Part shown: positions 9,936 through 41,608 of the stretch, in pieces
How positions within the stretch are numbered: the first letter of the stretch is position 1
How the letters are laid out: each line of letters begins with the position of its first letter
Origin: Actinomycetota bacterium
GTDB taxonomy: Bacteria; Actinomycetota; Thermoleophilia; BMS3ABIN01
NCBI GenBank assembly: GCA_023489275.1
Contig: JAMDDD010000005.1
Coordinates: 1,023-65,022, forward strand
Direction: 5' to 3'
DNA: 64,000 nucleotides
Notes under the pieces: generated by a model
What the model saw: only the letters and a program-made list of their open reading frames with translations
What the model was told of the DNA's origin: nothing
The model's database searches: none
Made by a program: the position numbers and the translations under genes

Positions 9936-11177
9936 TTAGTGCAGCGACCGGTACAGCTCCATCTGCTCCTTGATTACTTTCGCCAGACGTTTGATGCCTT
10001 CCTCGATTTTGGCCTCGGTCACGCCGCAAAAAGCCAGCCGCATATGGTTTGCCCCGCTGGAGTCAACCCAGCCGCCCGCGCCCGGCACGAAAGCCACTTT
10101 TTGCTCTTCCAGGGCCAGCGCCAGCAGGTCGGCCGTATCCAGGTATTCCGGCAGTGTCACCCAGATGTAAAAGCCTCCCTGCGGATGCGTCCAGGCTGCC
10201 TCTTCCGGGAAATATTCCTGCAGCGCCCGCAGCATGGCGTCGCGGCGCTTCCGGTAGATCCCGGTGACCTTGCGCACGTAATCTCGCCAGTCGGCCTGCT
10301 TGAAATAGTGATTCACCACCATCTGCGCCAGCGTTGAGGGACACAGGTCGGCCGCCTGTTTTCCCAGGTTAAATTTGGACAGGAGCGGCGCCGCCGCCGC
10401 GATCCAGCCGAGCCTGATCCCGGGCGACATTATCTTGGAGAAGGTGCTGATATAAATGACGTTGTCATCATCGTCAAGCGAGTAGAGCGCCGGCAACGGC
10501 TCGCCCTCGAATCGCAGCTGACCGTATGGGTTGTCTTCCAGGATGATCAGCTGCCGCTGCCGGGCCAGCGCGACCAGTTGATGCCGCCGTTCGAGGCTCA
10601 GGGAGACGCCGGCAGGGTTGTGAAAATTTGGTATCACATAAATGAATTTGGGTTTTATTTTCTTTTTTTGTGCCTGATCCAGATACCTTTCGAGCAGATC
10701 GATCCGCAGGCCCTCGTCATCGAGCGGAATCTGGTGCACGTTTGCCTCGAAGCTGCAAAAAGACGGGATGGCGCCCGGGTAAGTTGGCGCTTCGGCGACG
10801 ATCGTGTCCCCGGGATCAACCAGGACGCGGGTGACCAGGTCGATGGCCTGCTGCCCGCCGGTTGTCACGATCAGGTTGTCGATATCAACGTGCATGCCTT
10901 CCGCCGCCATCACCCTGGCGATGTTCATCTTGGTCTCGTCAAAACCTTCCGTCGGACCGTACTGCAGCGCCGCCGCGGAGGAGTTCATCGATATTTCGTG
11001 CGTGATCTTCGCCAGCGTCCTGGCGGGAAAGCTTTCGGTGCTGGGCAGGCCGCCCGCCAGAGTGATGACGTCCGGCCGGGCCGTGACCGCCATCAGGTCC
11101 CGCATCACGGAAGAGCGCAGGCCGCCGGTCCGTTTGGCATAAAATTCTTCATATTTGTCAATGCCGATTTTGGTCAT
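9936..11177 (-). CDS. PLP-dependent aminotransferase class I/II (LysN/ARO8-like)
   Basis: LAGGLP, LQYGPTEG, PNFHNPAG, EDNPYG and TFSKIMSPGIRLGW. Start placed at MTKIG. Confidence 0.9.
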   Translation of the reverse strand: MTKIGIDKYEEFYAKRTGGLRSSVMRDLMAVTARPDVITLAGGLPSTESFPARTLAKITHEISMNSSAAALQYGPTEGFDETKMNIARVMAAEGMHVDIDNLIVTTGGQQAIDLVTRVLVDPGDTIVAEAPTYPGAIPSFCSFEANVHQIPLDDEGLRIDLLERYLDQAQKKKIKPKFIYVIPNFHNPAGVSLSLERRHQLVALARQRQLIILEDNPYGQLRFEGEPLPALYSLDDDDNVIYISTFSKIMSPGIRLGWIAAAAPLLSKFNLGKQAADLCPSTLAQMVVNHYFKQADWRDYVRKVTGIYRKRRDAMLRALQEYFPEEAAWTHPQGGFYIWVTLPEYLDTADLLALALEEQKVAFVPGAGGWVDSSGANHMRLAFCGVTEAKIEEGIKRLAKVIKEQMELYRSLH

Positions 11178-33112: not shown

Positions 33113-36100
33113 ATGAAGAGCAGTTTCGGAGGTAATCGCAAGCTGCGGATCCTGTTGGTTATCGCTCCGCTGGCTTTGCTGATAATCCTGGCGGTAGCAA
33201 CGCTGGGGCTTTCCAGCGGCGCCGCGGTGACTCAATATCAAAGTACGGCTGTACCGGGCAATTACGGCGTCAGCAACCAGATGCTTTATGTCGCCAACGG
33301 CACCGACAGCAATGTCAAGGTAATTGACGTGGGCAGCATGAGTGTCGTCGACACCGTTCCGGTGCCGGCCCAGCCGGACGGCCTGCAGGGCCTCGGCTTG
33401 AACTGGGAGGTCCACGGCGTTGTCCCGTCGGCCGACAGAAGCAGCCTCTACACGGTGGGCGCTCTCTCGGGCGGCTACTTAAATGGCAGCAATTGTGACG
33501 GCGGCTGCGGTTATCACATTTCCCAGATCAACACCAAGACCAAAACTGAGATTAGGACCATCCCGCTGCCGACCGCCGCTTACGACCCGGTTGGCTACTG
33601 CGGCCTGGAGTACAACCTCAACAACGTCAACTCGAACTACCTGATCGCGGCAACAATGAACACCACGGACGCCAATCTGACGAACATGTTTGGCGCCCCG
33701 AATCTGGGTCGCACGCCGCAGCAAATGTTAGGCGGCTGGGCCAGTGTCAACCTGACTACCGGCTCGTCCACGTTCCTGAGCACCGACCAGAACGGCGACG
33801 GAGAATCAGGCACCTGCGGTATCGCCTGGAACGCCGCCGGCACGAAGGGCTACGCCTCGCAGATGTTCTCGCCGTTCATCGCCACGATCAACTGGGATGC
33901 GGCCACGGCCACCGGCACGCTCACGGGCTCGGCCATCGACGCTCCCGCCAACAGCGGCATGTATCATCAGGAAACAACAGACCCGTCCACCAATACCCTG
34001 TATGCGGCGAACGAGCAGCTCATCGATGTGATCGACATGAACACCGATACACGGATCACCACCATCGACATGTCCAAGCTGCTGGGCGCTACGGCTCCGC
34101 TGCATACGCATTCTGTGGACTTCACCGATGCGGGCGGCCACAAGGTGCTGTACGCGACGGTGCGGGATTATCCCGACAACAGCCAGGCAAGCATCGTGGC
34201 GCTTGACGTCAGCAATGTAAACAGCCCGGTAGTGATCGGTGAGACCCAGGGTCTTAACTACGAAGCCTGCGGCGTCTACGCCGATCCCAATAAGAGCCTG
34301 TACTACAAGGCTTCGGGGATCATCAGCGGCGCTCAGAGCGCTGCCGACGCCGTATATGGCATAACGGTTACCGCCGGTGGCAGCAATTACACTTCGGTGC
34401 CGACGGTGACGATCAGCGGCGGTGGCGGCAGCGGCGCCAGCGCGTCAGTCAGCGTTTATAACGGTTCTGTCAACGCCATCAACCTCCTCTCCGGCGGCGG
34501 CGGCTACACCACCGCTCCGACGGTGACGATCAGCGGCGGTGGCGGCAGCGGCGCGACGGCGACGGCTTCGATCGTCCCGGTTGCTCCGTTCAACCATAAC
34601 GCTCTCGCTAACGACCTGCTGTTCATCGCCGGCGGCCGCGACAGCAACGTCAAGGTCGTCGACCCGAGCTCGATGAGCATCGTGGACAAGATCCCGGTGC
34701 CGGACGAGGTCACGCCTGGTACGCCGGGAAATCCGACCACCTGCGTCAACTTGCCCTACTATGGCTGCACCAACCTGTACAGCCTCAATCCTGCCTTGAT
34801 GGATTGGGAGGTCCATGGTGTTTCTGTTTCGCCCGACCGCACCAAGATCTATGCGCAGGGCGCCCTCTCCGGCGGCAGTTACGCGACGCCGGGCGACTTA
34901 AACAGCACGTTCAACGTGGGCGACTACAAGCTGTACACGATCGGCACGGCGGATAAGCAGCTCCAGCGCGCAGATTCCCTGCAGCAGGCCAGTGACCCGG
35001 TAAATCCGGTTGGCTTCTGCGGCATGGAATACGACCTGAATAACGAGAACGCGAACTACATGATCTCGACATCGATGAACGCCAGCAACGCCACGCTCAA
35101 AGGCGCTCTGAGCGGCGCCGATCTCTCGAACGTGCGCGGCAGCGGTTATAACGAGCACGGCGGTTGGTACATCTTCAACCTGTCGACGCATCAGAACGTC
35201 AGCTTCCTCGACACGTACGATTCGGCGGCGGGCGAGGTCAACAATGAGTCCTCCACCTGCGGCATTGCCTGGAATGCGAGCGGCACGAACGCTTACGCAT
35301 CGCAGATGTTCCAGCCGTTTATCGACACAATAAGCTGGACGCCGGAGGCCGGGACTAATCCGCCCAGTGGTACTGTGACCGGCAACCTGACGCTGACGTC
35401 AGAAGCAAGTGGCGGCATGCACCAGGAATCCTCGGATAAAACGAATGGAATCCTGTATGTAAGCGATGATAGCGGTTATCTGGATGCTTATAGCATGACT
35501 ACTAACACAGCGATTGGCGAGATCAACATTCGCGGCCTCACCGGTTCGCCGAATGTTATGGTCCACAGCGTTGAGGTGTCTCCGAGCGACCCAAGCGTCA
35601 TCTATGTGCAGGGTCATGACTTGCCAGAAAATCCGGCAGGCACGGTCGATCCGGACAAGGGCGCCACTGAAGGCGGCGTTGCTGTCATCAAGATCGACGA
35701 CTTCGCAAACCCGGGCAGCTCGGCGCACGTGCTGGGAATCATCCCGGATATGGGCTATAACTCCTGCGGCGTGTATGCGATCCCCGACAAATCAACCTGG
35801 CAGGCAGTCCAGAACGCGGTCAAGCCAGCGCTGTCACTGACAAAGGGCAACGTGTACTGGGCCTCGTACAGCGACTATACGAACCACCAGCTGTCGGTTG
35901 ACTTCACGGTCAACGCGGCAGCGACAAGCTCGGCGGCGAGCGGCGTGCAGATTACCGGCGCCACCTTCGACCGGGCCGGCGTGTCCCTGGCAACCCCGAT
36001 GCCGCTTTCGCTTGGCGATTTCGGCGCCGGCGGCAGCGCCTCGTTCACGCTCAAGTACGACGTTTCCAGCCTGGTTGGCAACGTGTTCAAGACAACCACC

Positions 36101-36139
36101 GATGCATCTGCCGATGGCGGCGCGTGGACCTATCCCTAA
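33113..36139 (+). CDS. Secreted 1008-aa protein: two homologous YVTN/YncE-like beta-propellers, a Gly-rich repeat linker and the shared C-terminal YWAS..TYP domain
   Basis: Strong RBS and N-terminal signal/TM segment. Internal duplication of DSNVKV, WEVHGV, CG.EY, TCGIAWNA, YASQMF, HQE, HSV and CGVYA. Confidence 0.8.
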   Translation: MKSSFGGNRKLRILLVIAPLALLIILAVATLGLSSGAAVTQYQSTAVPGNYGVSNQMLYVANGTDSNVKVIDVGSMSVVDTVPVPAQPDGLQGLGLNWEVHGVVPSADRSSLYTVGALSGGYLNGSNCDGGCGYHISQINTKTKTEIRTIPLPTAAYDPVGYCGLEYNLNNVNSNYLIAATMNTTDANLTNMFGAPNLGRTPQQMLGGWASVNLTTGSSTFLSTDQNGDGESGTCGIAWNAAGTKGYASQMFSPFIATINWDAATATGTLTGSAIDAPANSGMYHQETTDPSTNTLYAANEQLIDVIDMNTDTRITTIDMSKLLGATAPLHTHSVDFTDAGGHKVLYATVRDYPDNSQASIVALDVSNVNSPVVIGETQGLNYEACGVYADPNKSLYYKASGIISGAQSAADAVYGITVTAGGSNYTSVPTVTISGGGGSGASASVSVYNGSVNAINLLSGGGGYTTAPTVTISGGGGSGATATASIVPVAPFNHNALANDLLFIAGGRDSNVKVVDPSSMSIVDKIPVPDEVTPGTPGNPTTCVNLPYYGCTNLYSLNPALMDWEVHGVSVSPDRTKIYAQGALSGGSYATPGDLNSTFNVGDYKLYTIGTADKQLQRADSLQQASDPVNPVGFCGMEYDLNNENANYMISTSMNASNATLKGALSGADLSNVRGSGYNEHGGWYIFNLSTHQNVSFLDTYDSAAGEVNNESSTCGIAWNASGTNAYASQMFQPFIDTISWTPEAGTNPPSGTVTGNLTLTSEASGGMHQESSDKTNGILYVSDDSGYLDAYSMTTNTAIGEINIRGLTGSPNVMVHSVEVSPSDPSVIYVQGHDLPENPAGTVDPDKGATEGGVAVIKIDDFANPGSSAHVLGIIPDMGYNSCGVYAIPDKSTWQAVQNAVKPALSLTKGNVYWASYSDYTNHQLSVDFTVNAAATSSAASGVQITGATFDRAGVSLATPMPLSLGDFGAGGSASFTLKYDVSSLVGNVFKTTTDASADGGAWTYP
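34400..34554 (+). repeat. 38-bp direct repeat encoding PTVTISGGGGSGA
   Basis: CCGACGGTGACGATCAGCGGCGGTGGCGGCAGCGGCGC at 34400-34437 and 34517-34554, a 117-nt (39-aa) period. Confidence 0.9.
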
Positions 36140-36201: not shown

Positions 36202-36327
36202 ATGGCTAAGAAAAGCCAGCGGGAGCCTTACGCTAAGCCTGAGCTGGTGAAGCACGAGAACCTGAAGGAAATTACCTTCGAGTGCTCGGGCTGGCAGTGC
36301 AGCGTAGTGGTTCCGTCAGCGCCGTAA
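36202..36327 (+). CDS. 41-aa RiPP-like precursor peptide, copy 1 (MAKKSQREPYAKPELVKHENLKEITFECSGWQCSVVVPSAP)
   Basis: AAGGAG RBS, a near-identical paralog at 40272 differing mostly synonymously, and a YxxPxL..T leader motif. Confidence 0.85.
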   Translation: MAKKSQREPYAKPELVKHENLKEITFECSGWQCSVVVPSAP

Positions 36328-36362
36328 AACGGCGAAGAGAAAGCAGGACGATAGCAACGAAA

Positions 36363-36395
36363 CGGGAGGGCCGGCCTCGCGGGCCGGCCCTCCCG
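36363..36395 (+). terminator. 14-bp GC-rich hairpin after peptide 1
   Basis: CGGGAGGGCCGGCC-TCGCG-GGCCGGCCCTCCCG; no U-tract on the plus strand. Confidence 0.65.
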
Positions 36396-36485
36396 AAAAC
36401 TTGACAGATCGGCGGGCAAGTTTGGCGGATTTGCCGTATAATTAAAAACTGCTTTTCCGCAACCAGAAGAAGGAGAACGTATCGC

Positions 36486-37070
36486 ATGAAAGCTGTAGCA
36501 GGCCAGAACCGGAACGGGAAATGGAGAGGTTCACAGGGAATGATGGCGGTGGCCGCGATGGCGCTGCTTGCCTTCACCATCATCATCGCGGGATGCGGCG
36601 GGGGGTCTGGAAACACAACAGCCTCACAGCTTAATAGCAAGTCAACAGGCACAACAGGGAAAACAGTGGCCTCAACACACAAAACTGGCACGACCGCTAC
36701 TGTTCCCGGGGTTATGGGAAACCAGCAGGTGCTGGCCGGATATACCGCGGACCAGTGCATGTCCGACTTGACGGCGCGGTACGGAAGCAGTGACGTTGCC
36801 GCTCAGGCATGCGCCCAGATCAACAAGGATTACGGAAGTTCCGTGCCCCGCAGCCAGCTAACCACCACTGTTTTGCCTAAAATCGAGCAGCAACATCCGA
36901 ACTGGAAACCGGTGCAGCCGGGAACTCCGCCGCCGTCGCCCGCACCGTCTCAACCGACGTCTGGCGGGCAGTCGCCGCCAGGAGGATCGGGCGGCACGAG
37001 CACGGGCGGCTGGTCCGGCGGCGGTATTCCGATCACGGTGCCGGGGCAGCCCGGAGGTAACGGCCCCTAA
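36486..37070 (+). CDS. Lipoprotein with a small Cys-paired domain and a Pro/Gly-rich tail
   Basis: AAGGAG RBS, lipobox IIAGC, Thr-rich linker, DQC...QAC pair, C-terminus GGWSGGGIPITVPGQPGGNGP. Confidence 0.7.
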   Translation: MKAVAGQNRNGKWRGSQGMMAVAAMALLAFTIIIAGCGGGSGNTTASQLNSKSTGTTGKTVASTHKTGTTATVPGVMGNQQVLAGYTADQCMSDLTARYGSSDVAAQACAQINKDYGSSVPRSQLTTTVLPKIEQQHPNWKPVQPGTPPPSPAPSQPTSGGQSPPGGSGGTSTGGWSGGGIPITVPGQPGGNGP

Positions 37071-37099
37071 GGCCGGACGGCCGGCGCGGCCCAGCGACA

Positions 37100-38149
37100 A
37101 TGACAGGTTATAAGGGGAAGAAAATGCTTGACAGTCTAAGTGAGATCATGGGTCAACGGTTCAGCGACGCCAAGCCAAATGCGGCGACGTATGACGTGCA
37201 CGGCGTCGTCACAAAAGTCTATGCGGATGACCATCTGCTGGCGCTGGCGATCCAGGATTTCCTGAGGCCTTTCCGCGGCCTGCCGGGCGCAGAGCCGGAC
37301 ATCGAGTTCTATCTCCTGACCAAGCCGGATGGCGACAAGGATGCCGGCGGCAGCTTCCGGGCAGCGGAGCTCCTGTATGACTGGAAGGTCCTCCGCTACA
37401 GCCGGGAAGGCCAGCTGCGGTATCAGGAAGTGCCCGGCGCCGGCTCGGTCGCGGCGGATCTCGATGCCGGACTGGCAGTGGCATTTGTGGATAGTGGCAT
37501 GTCGGCGCGGGCCTGGTCTGTGGCGCATGTGATCTTCTTCCCGATCTGGGCTCAGCTTCTGAAGGTAAAAGGCCTTTTCCCCGTGCATGCGGCCGGCATG
37601 GAGCGGCAGGGGTGCGGTCTTCTCTTTCCCGGAAGGAGCGGCAGCGGAAAGTCCACCCTGTCATTGCAGCTCTTGCGGCGCGGCTTCCGGCTGCTGGGAG
37701 ACGATACGGTCTTTGTCAGGGCAAATTCCCATGATGGTGCGGACATGCTCTTCTTTCCGGAGGAAGTTGATGTCTGCCCGGAGACGGTGGACCTGTTCCC
37801 CCAGCTGGCTTTGGCGCGAAATCTGACCGAGGATCGCTGGCAGCCCAAGACCAGGGTGAATCTCGGCGATGTCAGATCGAGCCAGGTGATCGAATCTGCG
37901 GCAGTCAACCTGCTCGTATTCCCGGTTATCGCCCGCGACGGCTGCACGCGTTACGAACGGATCGGGCAGACGGAGGCCCTGGCGGAGCTGATTCTGTTCG
38001 CCTTCCTGTTTATGGACCCGGAGACCAGCAAGGAAAACTTTGGTCTGCTGGCGGGTCTGGTGCGCAGGGCAGGCTGTTTCCGGCTCCACATGGGCCTGGA
38101 CGGCGGTGAGCTTGCCAAAGCTGTTGACGAAATGGTAGCTAGAGTATAA
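37100..38149 (+). CDS. HPr kinase-related P-loop kinase
   Basis: VHAAG, Walker A GRSGSGKST and LLGDDTVFV follow the HprK/PEPCK-like kinase pattern. Start may be 37124. Confidence 0.75.
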   Translation: MTGYKGKKMLDSLSEIMGQRFSDAKPNAATYDVHGVVTKVYADDHLLALAIQDFLRPFRGLPGAEPDIEFYLLTKPDGDKDAGGSFRAAELLYDWKVLRYSREGQLRYQEVPGAGSVAADLDAGLAVAFVDSGMSARAWSVAHVIFFPIWAQLLKVKGLFPVHAAGMERQGCGLLFPGRSGSGKSTLSLQLLRRGFRLLGDDTVFVRANSHDGADMLFFPEEVDVCPETVDLFPQLALARNLTEDRWQPKTRVNLGDVRSSQVIESAAVNLLVFPVIARDGCTRYERIGQTEALAELILFAFLFMDPETSKENFGLLAGLVRRAGCFRLHMGLDGGELAKAVDEMVARV

Positions 38150-38152
38150 AAT
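38124..38152 (+). promoter_or_regulatory. Sigma70-type promoter for the rhodanese-protein cassette
   Basis: TTGACG-N17-TAAAAT overlapping the end of the kinase gene. Confidence 0.5.
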
Positions 38153-38335
38153 TAGCTGCCTTATCCGGCGCAGCCGGGGCGCCGGGTGGTTGGCAAGCTT
38201 GGGGGCTTGCCGCAATCCCGAAGCAGCGACCATCGCTGCGGCAGGAAAAAGGAGGGGTGGGACCGCTTAATGGCCGCGGGCCCGCACAAAGTCCGCTCCT
38301 AGCGGAAAAAACACTAGAGGATGAAGGGAGGAAGT

Positions 38336-40219
38336 ATGCAAATCAGTTCAAAATTGCTTCGCACGGCGATTCTCGTTCTGGGGCTGATGGTAGCGCTTGG
38401 GCTTTATCTGAGCCTGAGCCTTGGACGCATCAGCACGGCCAAGGGCGTCGTCAGCGCCTGTAGCGGAACTGACTGGCAGAAAGTCCAATGCTACGCGGAT
38501 AAGTACATCCAGAACCAGTATCCGGGCGCCAGCGTTGGCGAAGGCGAAGGCAGCGTCGCCGCCGCGCAAAGCACGCCCTCGGGTTTCTACGTAAACCAGG
38601 CAACGCTCAAGAGTAAAGTTGACTCTAACGGTGACGGCACCTATCTGGGTGAGGGCGACGACCTGGCCAAGGCGCCGGTTCTGATCGACAACCTGAACCA
38701 GTTTACGACCTTGATTCCAGGCACCACCTTCCGTTGCAACTGGAATGAGAACAGCTGCTTCGAGCCGGGATCGGTGGCCGACGTCAAGACACAGGTGGAT
38801 GACCACGAAGCAGCCACCGGTCAGGTACCGGCTATTGTTGATTACTGCCTGACCGACCACACGGCGGCGCCGACCACCGGCGCCTGGGGCTACATCGCCC
38901 AGACCGGCGGCCTGGCCACCGACGGCTCCATCCCCAAGGTCTACGGCTTTACCTGGGGACGTGACGGCTGGACCAACACGCCGGTTAACAGCGGCTCCAC
39001 CACCACCAACGGCATCTACACGTACTCCAATACGTATCCAGTCACTTCTCCGGCCGCGACTGCTACCTACACGCCACCGTCCACGGTGCCGGGCAGTTGC
39101 ACCAGCGCCGGCGGCGACGCCGACCTGGTCCGCTGCGCGGCTGAGTGGGCCATCAGCCAGGATGCCGGTGAAGGCAACGTTGGCAACGGCCAGAATGTGG
39201 GCGCCACCATGACCGCCGGCCAGGTGGTTGATGTTAGAGCGGATACGCCTGCAAGCACCGTGAACCTGAACGGTTCCCTGGCTGCGAATCAGATCCCGAT
39301 CAACACTATCTTCAACACCGGTCTGGCTAACGTCAATCCGGCGGCAACGAGCGGCGTTCTCATCGCCAGCGGCTCCCAGGGACCGGGCGGCATCGTCGCC
39401 GAGGGTCTCAGGATGCTGGGATACACCACCGCCACCGGCGGCTATATCCATAGCGGCGTGCCGTACTATAACAACACCCTGTCGGTAAGCCAGGGACAGC
39501 CGAACACCGGCACAGCTTACCCGCTCGATGCGGTCACGGCGCAGTGCACCGCTCCCAGCAACGGCTGCAACCAGATCTATGGTACTCAGGATCTGGGCGC
39601 GGAGATGAACACCACCGCGGCGGCGATCAGCAGCTCCAGCGCTACGGACACCGGTGACACGACCGCGACGGTCAGCAGGACGACGAGTCAGCCGGCTACC
39701 ACCAAGATCGATCTGACCGGTTCTGACAGCTCTGCCGTACATGTCAACAACACCATCCTGCACGCCAGCGACACGGAGAACCTGACCGGCCTGCATCCGG
39801 GTGTGACCTATACCGGCACGCTGAGCGTCTACAACAACATGGCGCTGGTTTCCAGCACGCCGATCAGCTTCACGACGAGCGGCATCGCCTGCGCCAAACC
39901 GGCGCTCGGGCTGACGTCACCTCCGCACGCCTACTGGGCCAGCCTGTCCGACTACAGCGCCGGCATCCTGTCGGTTGACTTCACCATCAATAATAGCGCC
40001 GTCAGCCCGAACGCGGTGGGTGTCCAGATCACCGGCAGCGCCAGCAACAACGGCGTCACCGTCAACTCCGGCATACCTTCGGCGGCGACCAACATCGCCT
40101 CTGGCGGCTCGGCTACGGTGACGGTCACGTACCACATTCCCGCGGGCGTCACATGGTTCCACACAAGCCTGACCGTGAGCGCCCAGGATGAATGCGGAAA
40201 CTCGTATACGTATCCCTAG
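38336..40219 (+). CDS. Secreted tandem rhodanese-like protein with an FN3-like domain and the shared C-terminal YWAS..TYP domain
   Basis: GGGAGG RBS and signal peptide. Domain 1 has VLID..IPG..IVDYCLTDHTA..WGRDGW; domain 2 has VVDVR..LRMLGY. LTGLHPGVTY is FN3-like. Confidence 0.7.
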   Translation: MQISSKLLRTAILVLGLMVALGLYLSLSLGRISTAKGVVSACSGTDWQKVQCYADKYIQNQYPGASVGEGEGSVAAAQSTPSGFYVNQATLKSKVDSNGDGTYLGEGDDLAKAPVLIDNLNQFTTLIPGTTFRCNWNENSCFEPGSVADVKTQVDDHEAATGQVPAIVDYCLTDHTAAPTTGAWGYIAQTGGLATDGSIPKVYGFTWGRDGWTNTPVNSGSTTTNGIYTYSNTYPVTSPAATATYTPPSTVPGSCTSAGGDADLVRCAAEWAISQDAGEGNVGNGQNVGATMTAGQVVDVRADTPASTVNLNGSLAANQIPINTIFNTGLANVNPAATSGVLIASGSQGPGGIVAEGLRMLGYTTATGGYIHSGVPYYNNTLSVSQGQPNTGTAYPLDAVTAQCTAPSNGCNQIYGTQDLGAEMNTTAAAISSSSATDTGDTTATVSRTTSQPATTKIDLTGSDSSAVHVNNTILHASDTENLTGLHPGVTYTGTLSVYNNMALVSSTPISFTTSGIACAKPALGLTSPPHAYWASLSDYSAGILSVDFTINNSAVSPNAVGVQITGSASNNGVTVNSGIPSAATNIASGGSATVTVTYHIPAGVTWFHTSLTVSAQDECGNSYTYP

Positions 40220-40271
40220 ACACTGAACCAGGAATATGGCAAATAAGGCAAAGAAAAGAGGAGAAACCGCA

Positions 40272-40397
40272 ATGACCAAAGAAACAATGCGGGAACCCTA
40301 TGCCAAGCCTGAGCTGGTGAAGCACGAGAACCTGAAGGAAATCACCTTCGAGTGCTCGGGCTGGCAGTGTAGCGTAGTGGTTCCGCCGGCGCCTTAA
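40272..40397 (+). CDS. 41-aa RiPP-like precursor peptide, copy 2 (MTKETMREPYAKPELVKHENLKEITFECSGWQCSVVVPPAP)
   Basis: GAGGAG RBS; 34 of 35 residues identical to copy 1 from R7 onward. An alternative in-frame ATG exists at 40236. Confidence 0.85.
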   Translation: MTKETMREPYAKPELVKHENLKEITFECSGWQCSVVVPPAP

Positions 40398-40443
40398 AGG
40401 CGAAACAAAGAAAGAAGGGCGCAGCTCGCTGCGTCTTTAAGGA

Positions 40444-40473
40444 GAGAGGGCGGCCCGTACGGGCCGCCCTCTC
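40444..40473 (+). terminator. 30-bp perfect palindrome after peptide 2
   Basis: GAGAGGGCGGCCC-GTAC-GGGCCGCCCTCTC. Confidence 0.65.
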
Positions 40474-40961
40474 GCTGCGTTAGCCTCCACCGATCAAGCA
40501 ATCATCCAATTTTACCGAGGATTCCGCTCCGCTCTTGATTTTCGGATTTTGAACCTTGCGCTTGTTAACTTTGGACTTAAAAAGCGGGGACGCACGCCGC
40601 GCCCCCGCCAAGAAGAAGCGGCAATTGCCTCCTCTTCATGGAAACCGGTTGGCAGGAATATCAGGCGCATCGCGAAACACCCCAAATAGTCATTACCACG
40701 GCTTCCAAACATAAAAACAGATATTGAATAGCAAAACCCGGTTTCTAACCAGCCTGATCGAGAAACCTTGACCGCTACCAACAATGTTCTCGCGGGTGCT
40801 GCCCTTCATGGAAAGCCCCTTGGGGGAATACCCTTAGCCCATATTATGAGAAACTCTTCGGCAGAAGACGGTAAAATCTGTAGCGGCGGGGTCCCGGGCA
40901 ATTTTACTTGACGGCCGGCAAAGGGTACCCTTTAATCAGGTTCGTTATTCCAGGAGAAAGC

Positions 40962-41608
40962 TTGCAGCACATCATCGGCCCGCTCATAAATCTGGCCACG
41001 GATACAATCGGCCCGTACGGCGTCATCGCCGTTTTTCTTCTGATGGCGCTTGAGAGCGCCTGCATCCCCATTCCCAGCGAAGTCATCATGCTTCTGGGCG
41101 GCTTCCAGGTTGCCCAGGGCAAAATGACGCTTCTGGAGGTGACGGCCGCGGGCGTCACCGGTAACATGGCCGGTTCCTGGCTGGCTTACGCGGCCGGCCG
41201 GTATGGCGGCCGCGGCGCGCTCGAGCGATATGGCAAGTATATCTTTTTATCAAGTGAAAAACTCGATATGGCGGACAAATGGTGGGCAAGATACGGCAGT
41301 CCGGCGGTATTTTTCTCGCGGATGCTGCCGATCATCCGCACGTTCATTTCGCTGCCGGCGGGAATTGGACGGATGCCTTTTGCCCGTTTTCCGCTTATAC
41401 CGTGGCCGGCTCGATCCCCTGGTCGCTGATGCTGGCGTTTGTCGGTTATAAAGTAGGCGAGAACTGGCAAAGCATCTACGACAAGCTGCATCTGCTTGAC
41501 TACCCCGTTCTGGCCGCGGTAGTCCTTGCTTTATTTTATGCGATCTGGCGCCGGCGCCGCCGCCAGCAGGCCGCCGTTGCCGCTGTCAAAAACGGTCCCG
41601 AAAAATAG
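40962..41608 (+). pseudogene. dedA: DedA family membrane protein with a frameshift (pseudogene or sequencing error)
   Basis: ESACIPIPSE and RMLPIIRTFISLPAG are in one frame; the continuation SAYTVAGSIPW is in another. Adding one T to the T4 run at 41387-41390 restores the frame. Confidence 0.75.

Follow-up and report, generated by a model that had tools for sequence, protein, structure and literature searches.

A 64,000-nucleotide stretch of contig JAMDDD010000005.1 from an Actinomycetota bacterium (assembly GCA_023489275.1, positions 1,023 to 65,022; hereafter the window) encodes two near-identical peptides of 41 amino acids, copy A (36202..36327, + strand) and copy B (40272..40397, + strand), on either side of a gene for an HprK-like kinase. 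Both open reading frames (ORFs) are genuine precursor-peptide genes. Our reading, in which we place somewhat more belief than doubt, is that they represent a multi-copy family of peptides made by ribosomes and modified after translation (RiPPs) that derives from a lasso peptide pathway, lacks the ring-forming step and is modified by a kinase. Gene content and arrangement make it most likely that the intervening kinase phosphorylates the peptides and that they are linked to proteins of the cell surface.

Results

Both ORFs had been called in a reading of the letters alone, made without database searches (the sequence-only reading), and we confirm them, each with a good ribosome-binding site (RBS; AAGGAG and GAGGAG, 6–8 nt 5′ of the ATG). 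In copy A, residues 1–26 form the leader (Y10, K12, P13, L15 ... T25, F26) and are followed by the core ECSGWQCSVVVPSAP; the core of copy B is ECSGWQCSVVVPPAP. Over codons 7–41 the copies differ by 7 synonymous changes (codons 8, 9, 10, 11, 24, 33 and 41) and a single non-synonymous one (S39P), exactly the counts given before, and nucleotide identity falls, as had been described, from 91% in this segment to 56% over codons 1–6 and 30–35% in the ungapped 60-nt flanks. Nei–Gojobori estimates over 29 codons of 24 copies gave a mean dN of 0.108, a mean dS of 0.877 and a ratio of 0.12, with dS finite in 241 of 276 pairs, many pairs saturated at synonymous sites and dN biased downward by the choice of copies with a motif regular expression. 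The peptide family is under purifying selection, which had been proposed from the two copies.

The source genome (1.58 Mb in 45 contigs, 92% complete) holds six frame-preserving copies, two on contig C45, two on C30 and one each on C23 and C21, all with an RBS-like tract, plus one divergent member. A six-frame search recovered the peptide, with its frame kept, in all 23 genomes of the same taxonomic family (3–12 matches each, more than 180 in total, no internal stops); eight sister families of the class, searched through 37 genomes, gave none. Members fall into 33 clusters of a large protein collection, all unnamed or ‘hypothetical’, the labelled ones being proteins of Thermoleophilia or Actinomycetota metagenome-assembled genomes (MAGs). 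When a profile of the divergent members was run against a 401-genome sample of the phylum, matches were confined to the taxonomic family of the source genome (f1), plus two marginal ones in family f22; no spread to other phyla was seen, the named distant members being Actinomycetota MAG proteins. The family is lineage-restricted and multi-copy.

The divergent seventh member of the source genome (47 aa, with an RBS; contig C22, approximately 9972–10115, + strand, equal to L085:1486–1629; profile E = 1.3e-7) has a leader of the family type (YAEPCLTKLGNIIDIT), a core beginning DSVGWASSW in which W5 and S8 are kept, and an acidic tail with two Cys; its neighbours are housekeeping genes of pentose-phosphate type, with no adjoining enzyme. 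The two small ORFs in family f22 (L060:1525–1611 in genome G393 and L061:147–227 in G290) have a related leader and a canonical-looking lasso core, with Thr at −2, Gly1 and Asp9 in that of G393. They could not be confirmed as lasso-core members of the family: the contigs are short, one ORF lies beside a MOP-family flippase gene and the leader peptidase (B2) gene of G290 is on another contig. A homologue of the HprK-like kinase was found in neither f22 genome.

In an alignment of 31 sequences, Y10, K12, P13, T25, F26, C28, W31, C33, S34, V35, V37 and P38 are invariant and L15, L21, K22, E27 and Q32 are conserved in at least 90%, while the two residues between C28 and W31 and the Pro-rich tail vary. 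Y10, P13, L15 and T25 are the positions of the lasso leader motif, Y-x-x-P-x-L with a penultimate Thr, as defined in PMC13381572 and in the sequence-only reading, and the assignment of the leader to the type bound by a RiPP recognition element (RRE) holds across the alignment. When 1.84 billion representatives were searched with a profile, 61 proteins matched at E up to 1e-3; 11 long matches were left out as spurious repeat matches, judged on their first 60 residues only. Among the matches are approximately 30 divergent small peptides that have the same leader and different cores, able to do without the first Cys and ending in an acidic or His-rich tail.

The leader regular expression is matched by 85 of 88 small family members, which were retrieved by a profile that included the core and are related to each other and so are not independent samples. 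Counted from the residue after T-F, Ser stands at core position 8 in 79 of these 85; position 7 is Cys in 73, position 5 is Trp in 67, and none has Asp or Glu at positions 7–9. The constant feature of the core is W5-x-C7-S8 at a fixed register from the predicted cleavage site, and Ser8 is the only invariant core Ser; the C-x-x-W-x-C unit singled out earlier does not hold as such, its first Cys being dispensable in the wider family. This register suggests a direct hypothesis for the site of modification. The statement that the core is unable to form a normal lasso extends to all 85 members, among which no canonical lasso core was found.

No RRE, B2 peptidase or cyclase gene lies in the window, as had been noted, all matches being on other contigs. 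The genome does have an RRE-type protein, encoded by a single PF05402 gene (PqqD/RRE, B1; 67 bits) on contig C10. Compared with solved structures, a profile of nine orthologues of this RRE matched TbiB1 (E = 1.4e-10), PbaB1 (6e-9), TfuB1 (1e-5) and LppB (9x8z; 6e-4). Of 23 relatives, 21 have a B2 gene (Transglut_core3) that clears the Pfam cut-off, and 20 of these 21 carry it within 600 bp of PqqD; one scanned relative B2 also passes the NCBIfam model lasso_biosyn_B2 (NF033537; 36.9 against 33). After B2, the relatives have a gene for a polytopic DUF2079 membrane protein and then glycosyltransferase genes; the approximately 630-aa gene following B2, considered as the missing cyclase, proved to be this DUF2079 protein. 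An NTP_transf_5 gene (PF14907, 204 bits) adjoins the PqqD gene in the source genome, and the family is present in 12 of 23 relatives.

Nine inspected RRE/B2 loci of relatives contain no precursor gene, and no Asn-synthase homologue or cyclase was found in 13 loci of the HprK-like kinase, in the nine relative RRE loci or on C10 of the source genome. Two Asn synthases on contig C4 were rejected as cyclases: they pass the AsnB model, fail both lasso-cyclase cut-offs and sit in a glycan island. With no cyclase found and an acidic acceptor in 0 of 85 members, we also rejected a canonical lasso. The island itself (C4, 1–32000) is a large glycan-biosynthesis region with several B12-type radical S-adenosylmethionine (SAM) genes (475–509 aa), two SPASM radical SAM genes, two genes for AsnB-type amidotransferases, one of them without the Cys2 nucleophile, and flippase-like genes, glycosyltransferase-like genes and a distant DUF2079 paralogue.

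The peptides had been expected to be matured by enzymes encoded elsewhere in the genome; this stands for the RRE on C10 and fails for the HprK-like kinase (kinase 1; 37100..38149, + strand; 349 aa), which is encoded between the copies in conserved synteny and is the candidate Ser kinase for the peptides. Kinase 1 scores 37.5 bits on Pfam Hpr_kinase_C (gathering threshold 33.3), and its P-loop, His and DD segment align to the HprK/P structures 1ko7 and 1jb1. Among 58 kinase homologues G158, H163, G178, G183, K184, S185, T186, G195, D201 and D202 are invariant. Full-length orthologues occur in 18 relatives (64–94% identity), 15 of which have a peptide copy no farther than 2.5 kb away; in the remaining three the contig stops just past kinase 1, and two further kinase fragments at contig ends also adjoin a peptide gene. 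A paralogue (kinase 2, 35–42% identity), in which the P-loop, His and DD residues are likewise kept, is encoded on C10 directly before the sole PqqD-domain gene of the source genome, which the NTP_transf_5 gene then follows, and kinase 2 adjoins PqqD in all nine inspected relative loci as well. The two paralogues score 58.4 and 49.6 bits on the HprK-related kinase A/B models (TIGR04352/TIGR04355), whose cut-off of 200 they do not pass. Precomputed annotation lists PF27840 on nearly all kinase-1 and kinase-2 homologues.

Taken together, this gene content favours Ser phosphorylation among the chemistries that the sequence-only reading had listed. The leader (Y-x-K-P-x-L-V-K-H-x-N-L-K-E-I-T-F) would be bound by the sole discrete RRE, the PqqD-family B1 protein; the HprK-like kinase, be it kinase 1, the RRE-adjacent paralogue or both, would phosphorylate the invariant core Ser8, possibly several times; and a lasso-type B2 Cys peptidase would cut the leader after T-F. 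A macrolactam is predicted not to form, the observed absences being those of a cyclase and of Asp/Glu in the ring-closing register, where Ser stands instead. The product would be linear or disulfide-looped, E-C-x-x-W-Q-C-pS-V-x-V-P-P-x-P, and in some genomes the NTP_transf_5 enzyme and glycosyl enzymes may decorate it further.

The peptide genes keep company with genes for surface proteins. Across genera one order recurs: a large secreted protein ending in Y-x-Y-P, a peptide, a lipoprotein of approximately 190 aa, kinase 1, a secreted protein of approximately 600 aa ending in CGxxYTYP and a second peptide. In the window, the 5′ partner of copy A encodes a 1,008-aa secreted protein with YVTN beta-propeller repeats (33113..36139, + strand) and a C-terminal module ending in GGAWTYP (profile match at residues 887–1014 of the stop-to-stop frame, E = 2.7e-37). 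The 5′ partner of copy B encodes a 632-aa secreted protein (38321..40219, + strand) whose module, ending in CGNSYTYP, is matched exactly at the C terminus (E = 2.0e-44) and for which Pfam and NCBIfam scans give no family. Spacers of 52–62 nt (62 nt at copy A), unstructured, separate peptide copies from their upstream genes. Among the 46 distinct Pro-tail copies with flanking sequence at hand, 30 follow a same-strand ORF ending in aromatic-x-[YFL]-[PG], 12 lack such an upstream ORF (several being near misses) and 4 lie at contig ends; the background rate of this ending is 29 of 1,143 ORFs (2.5%).

The partner proteins share the C-terminal module, approximately 120 aa long, which has no significant Pfam match (3 of 24 members match CARDB weakly, best E = 0.013) and no match in the PDB. 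Because it is attached to bodies as varied as beta-propeller, FN3-like, rhodanese, multicopper oxidase and beta-helix folds, its behaviour suggests a sorting or anchoring module. The source genome has 13 ORFs with the module, C-terminal in 12, and a peptide gene comes next after five; a strict one-to-one pairing of module and peptide is rejected from the module side by these 5 of 13. One of the 13 is the secreted protein encoded beside the kinase-2/PqqD/NTP_transf_5 triad.

The gene between copy A and kinase 1 encodes a 194-aa lipoprotein-like protein (36486..37070, + strand; lipobox ...IIAGC, C terminus ...GGIPITVPG.. from the ORF translation) that matches no Pfam or NCBIfam family. Its orthologues always precede kinase 1 (loci L035–L046 and L057) and have endings such as IEIVVPPAP, IDITVPPAP and IQIEVPPAP; this tail, a strand plus VPPxP, resembles the tail CSVVVPPAP of the peptide core, and a binding partner or recognition step may be common to the lipoprotein and the peptides. 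The observed synteny suggests that the peptide genes are transcribed as 3′ partners of module-bearing surface-protein genes, an arrangement from which their biological role would probably lie in the cell envelope rather than in antibiosis.

A terminator-like GC-rich hairpin (36363..36395, + strand), found by folding and in a terminator scan, ends the surface-protein/peptide unit of copy A (−37.2 kcal/mol, z −4.5), and two successive terminator-like hairpins (40415..40476, + strand) stand 3′ of copy B (folded segment −46.5 kcal/mol, z −5.4); 0 of 200 shuffles were equally stable in either case. A sigma-70-like promoter match (38124–38152, + strand; TTGACG-17-TAAAAT, 10/12) lies in the 3′ end of kinase 1, 170 nt before the gene for the 632-aa surface protein; the region has four promoter matches against a shuffled mean of 3.0, that is, not above expectation. 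Further downstream is a gene for a DedA/VTT-domain membrane protein (40908..41429, + strand; Pfam VTT_dom, 68.8 bits). In relatives (L038:11586–15625; also L040, L041 and L043–L046), the block after the cassette encodes a HAMP-GGDEF diguanylate cyclase on the opposite strand, DedA/VTT, UppP/BacA and a PHO4 phosphate transporter; only DedA remains of it in the window, followed by housekeeping genes of rsmA/ispE type. The genes downstream of the cassette were considered as a possible exporter and set aside, being those for GGDEF, DedA, UppP and PHO4.

Discussion

A literature search turned up no paper that deals with this family or its motifs, with DUF2079 or with a B1/B2/kinase system without a cyclase; the sole related study describes peptides of Bacillota termed linear polyphosphorylated peptides (LPPs; Popov et al., Nat Commun 2026; PMC13381572). 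In the portions of that report on which we draw, LPP clusters combine a discrete RRE with an HprK-like kinase and have no macrolactam cyclase, the kinase puts several phosphates on one core Ser (LppK on Ser3), leader cleavage is RRE-dependent, the clusters often lie in capsular polysaccharide loci and the precursor motif is YxxPxVLxHQxIxFETxxS; LPPs are stated to be restricted to Bacillota and their biological roles to be unknown (PMC13381572). With cyclase-less pathways of RRE and HprK-like kinase already described there, the earlier suggestion of a new RiPP class was overstated: the peptide system is new as a variant of such recently described pathways, not as a new class.

The two systems have in common a discrete RRE with an HprK-like kinase and no cyclase, loci rich in glycosyltransferase or polysaccharide genes, and several precursors whose Y-x-x-P leader is conserved and whose C termini vary. 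Aligned with the family leader, the LPP motif agrees at Y1, P4, the hydrophobic positions 6/7, H9, Q/E10, I/L12 and T16 and disagrees at F14, E15 and S19. They differ in the leader peptidase, a lasso-type B2 Cys peptidase here and a SpI/SipW-type serine peptidase in LPPs; in the source genome, the archaeal-type SpI model (TIGR02228, cut-off 51.85) gave two sub-threshold matches, of 33 bits and 26 bits, on C2 and C30 and remote from the loci, the relatives being outside this search. LPPs have an MsbA-like exporter, whereas none was matched in the source genome; by profile E-values, the RRE here stands nearer to the B1 proteins of lasso systems than to LppB; and the candidate phospho-Ser is at core position 8 rather than 3. 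Further differences are the phylum (Actinomycetota, with MAGs labelled Thermoleophilia, rather than Bacillota), the presence here of two kinase paralogues and the placement of the precursor genes, which are dispersed (3–12 per genome) as 3′ partners of surface-protein genes here and in-cluster in LPPs. LPPs also include an uncharacterised NTP transferase, and here a PF14907 gene stands beside PqqD and is present in 12 of 23 relatives; the text of PMC13381572, as far as it is drawn on here, does not state whether LppN belongs to PF14907. We see the peptide system as a probably parallel, lasso-derived, cyclase-less actinobacterial pathway, LPP-like and outside the LPP family as defined, because it has no SpI above cut-off, no ABC_membrane exporter, a B2 peptidase in relatives and an RRE nearer to lasso B1.

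Phosphorylated and phosphoglycosylated lasso peptides (paeninodin and pseudomycoidin) offer a second comparison. According to the parts of PMC8498205 used here, they likewise have a Y/W-x-x-P leader and discrete B1 plus B2, and they involve an NTP-transferase-type enzyme and an HPr-kinase homologue whose substrate is the precursor in linear form; this work on lasso tailoring kinases supports, by analogy, the view that kinases of this sort modify the precursor while it is linear (PMC8498205). Those peptides have a lasso cyclase, Asp/Glu at positions 7–9 and a C-terminal phospho-Ser, whereas the present family has no cyclase, 0 of 85 members with an acidic acceptor and no C-terminal Ser. Canonical actinobacterial lasso systems (TbiB1, TfuB1/FusB1) supply the best solved RRE homologues, with Thr at −2 and the YxxPxL leader in common; they differ in having a cyclase, an in-cluster precursor and no kinase.

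Several observations weigh against a lasso-derived, kinase-modified family. In no case does the RRE/B2 locus adjoin a peptide locus; what connects them is the leader motif, the phyletic pattern and the absence of another substrate, and this pattern is that of one lineage, effectively a single event. The RRE falls below the cut-off of NCBIfam lasso_PqqD_Bac (59.7 against 80), the N-terminal half of the kinase shows no similarity that would support a built-in RRE (hhalign probability 1.7%), and the peptides were not picked up by any curated lasso-precursor model of NCBIfam (E up to 1; the best, lasso_cyano, reached 11.6 bits where 33 are required, at E = 0.22 and with copy B only). No MsbA-type exporter (PF00664, E up to 1e-5) was matched in the source genome, against 13 of 14 control genomes, and no ABC exporter was seen in the relatives’ loci. 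Neither B2 nor the orthologous DUF2079 gene was found in the 92% complete source assembly. In the closest relative (G004) both lie approximately 20 kb from PqqD on the same contig; because the equivalent position falls approximately 5 kb beyond the end of C10, an assembly gap is the simplest reading, and B2 is probably missing for this reason. Finally, the only invariant Ser is internal (position 8), unlike the C-terminal Ser on which known lasso-cluster kinases act, as far as PMC8498205 is drawn on, or Ser3 of LppK, and the invariance of Trp5 and Cys7 points to possible further chemistry, beyond what phosphorylation explains.

Those two residues are the core of the first alternative, in which maturation would proceed mainly by crosslinking at Trp5/Cys7 (and Cys2), through a radical-SAM/SPASM thioether, a Cys–Trp link or an enzymatic disulfide, with the kinases accessory or serving another target. 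Conservation of W5 and C7 (67/85 and 73/85) comes close to that of S8, and discrete lasso-type RREs are also found together with radical SAM enzymes in the part of the RRE-Finder report used here (PMC7470986). Although the source genome has six SPASM-domain matches, no radical SAM or SPASM gene adjoins any inspected peptide copy, kinase-1 cassette or RRE/B2 locus; two of the SPASM genes belong to the C4 glycan island and two to a heme cluster (ahb/nirJ-type) on C21. Cys2, moreover, is not conserved in the divergent subfamily, and position 7 is Ser in one member and Val in another. We regard crosslinking as the main chemistry as improbable.

The peptides could instead be unmodified small cytoplasmic proteins, either regulators or HPr-like kinase substrates, with a fortuitous or vestigial likeness to a leader and an RRE/B2 operon that serves another substrate. 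HprK/P classically phosphorylates a small protein on Ser, and this role would fit that action; the unlinked peptide and RRE/B2 loci, the negative exporter search in the source genome and the B2 gene missing from its assembly point the same way. Against it, lasso and LPP leaders have the 16-residue register seen here, Thr included, the RRE/B2 loci hold no other precursor, and peptides, RRE, B2 and kinases have one common phyletic distribution. The variable Pro-rich or acidic tails and positions 3–4 also look like those of a RiPP core, not of a folded protein, and to unmodified proteins we allow only a slim chance.

It is very improbable that the family consists of true lasso peptides whose ring an unusual or distant cyclase closes, for instance the C4 AsnB paralogue that lacks the Cys, possibly through a non-canonical linkage: leader, B1 and B2 are lasso-type and the paralogue starts MSGIAG, without the Cys2 nucleophile, and reaches 268 bits on a lasso-cyclase model, but it passes AsnB (392 against 267), fails the lasso-cyclase cut-offs (268 against 525; 56 against 300) and sits in a glycan-biosynthesis island, none of the 85 peptides has Asp/Glu at 7–9 and no Asn-synthase homologue occurs in approximately 20 inspected neighbourhoods.

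Staying with the kinase-modified, lasso-derived family, a more speculative proposal concerns what the product does. The mature (phospho)peptide might be the dedicated partner of the lineage-specific sorting or anchoring module, not a toxin or signal, which would make the RiPP a structural adaptor; we consider this unlikely as it stands. The peptide and the core-mimicking lipoprotein would then dock onto or become attached to the module (...CGxxYTYP) of surface enzymes, tethering them to the envelope or to a phosphate-linked glycopolymer. A bolder corollary is that the HprK-type kinase might have replaced the lasso cyclase, with a phospho-activated Ser8 closing a non-amide, lasso-like ring.

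LPPs and phosphorylated lasso peptides have only recently been described, and this uncultured actinobacterial lineage may have independently lost the cyclase of a lasso pathway that included a kinase, keeping the lasso B1/B2 pair rather than recruiting a SpI peptidase. The genetic link to 3′-partner surface proteins with a common module, to a lipoprotein with a core-like tail and to nearby lipid-carrier genes (DedA, UppP) makes function testable. If the peptides act with these surface proteins, they would provide the first functional lead for this group of RiPPs, and it would place them in the cell envelope.

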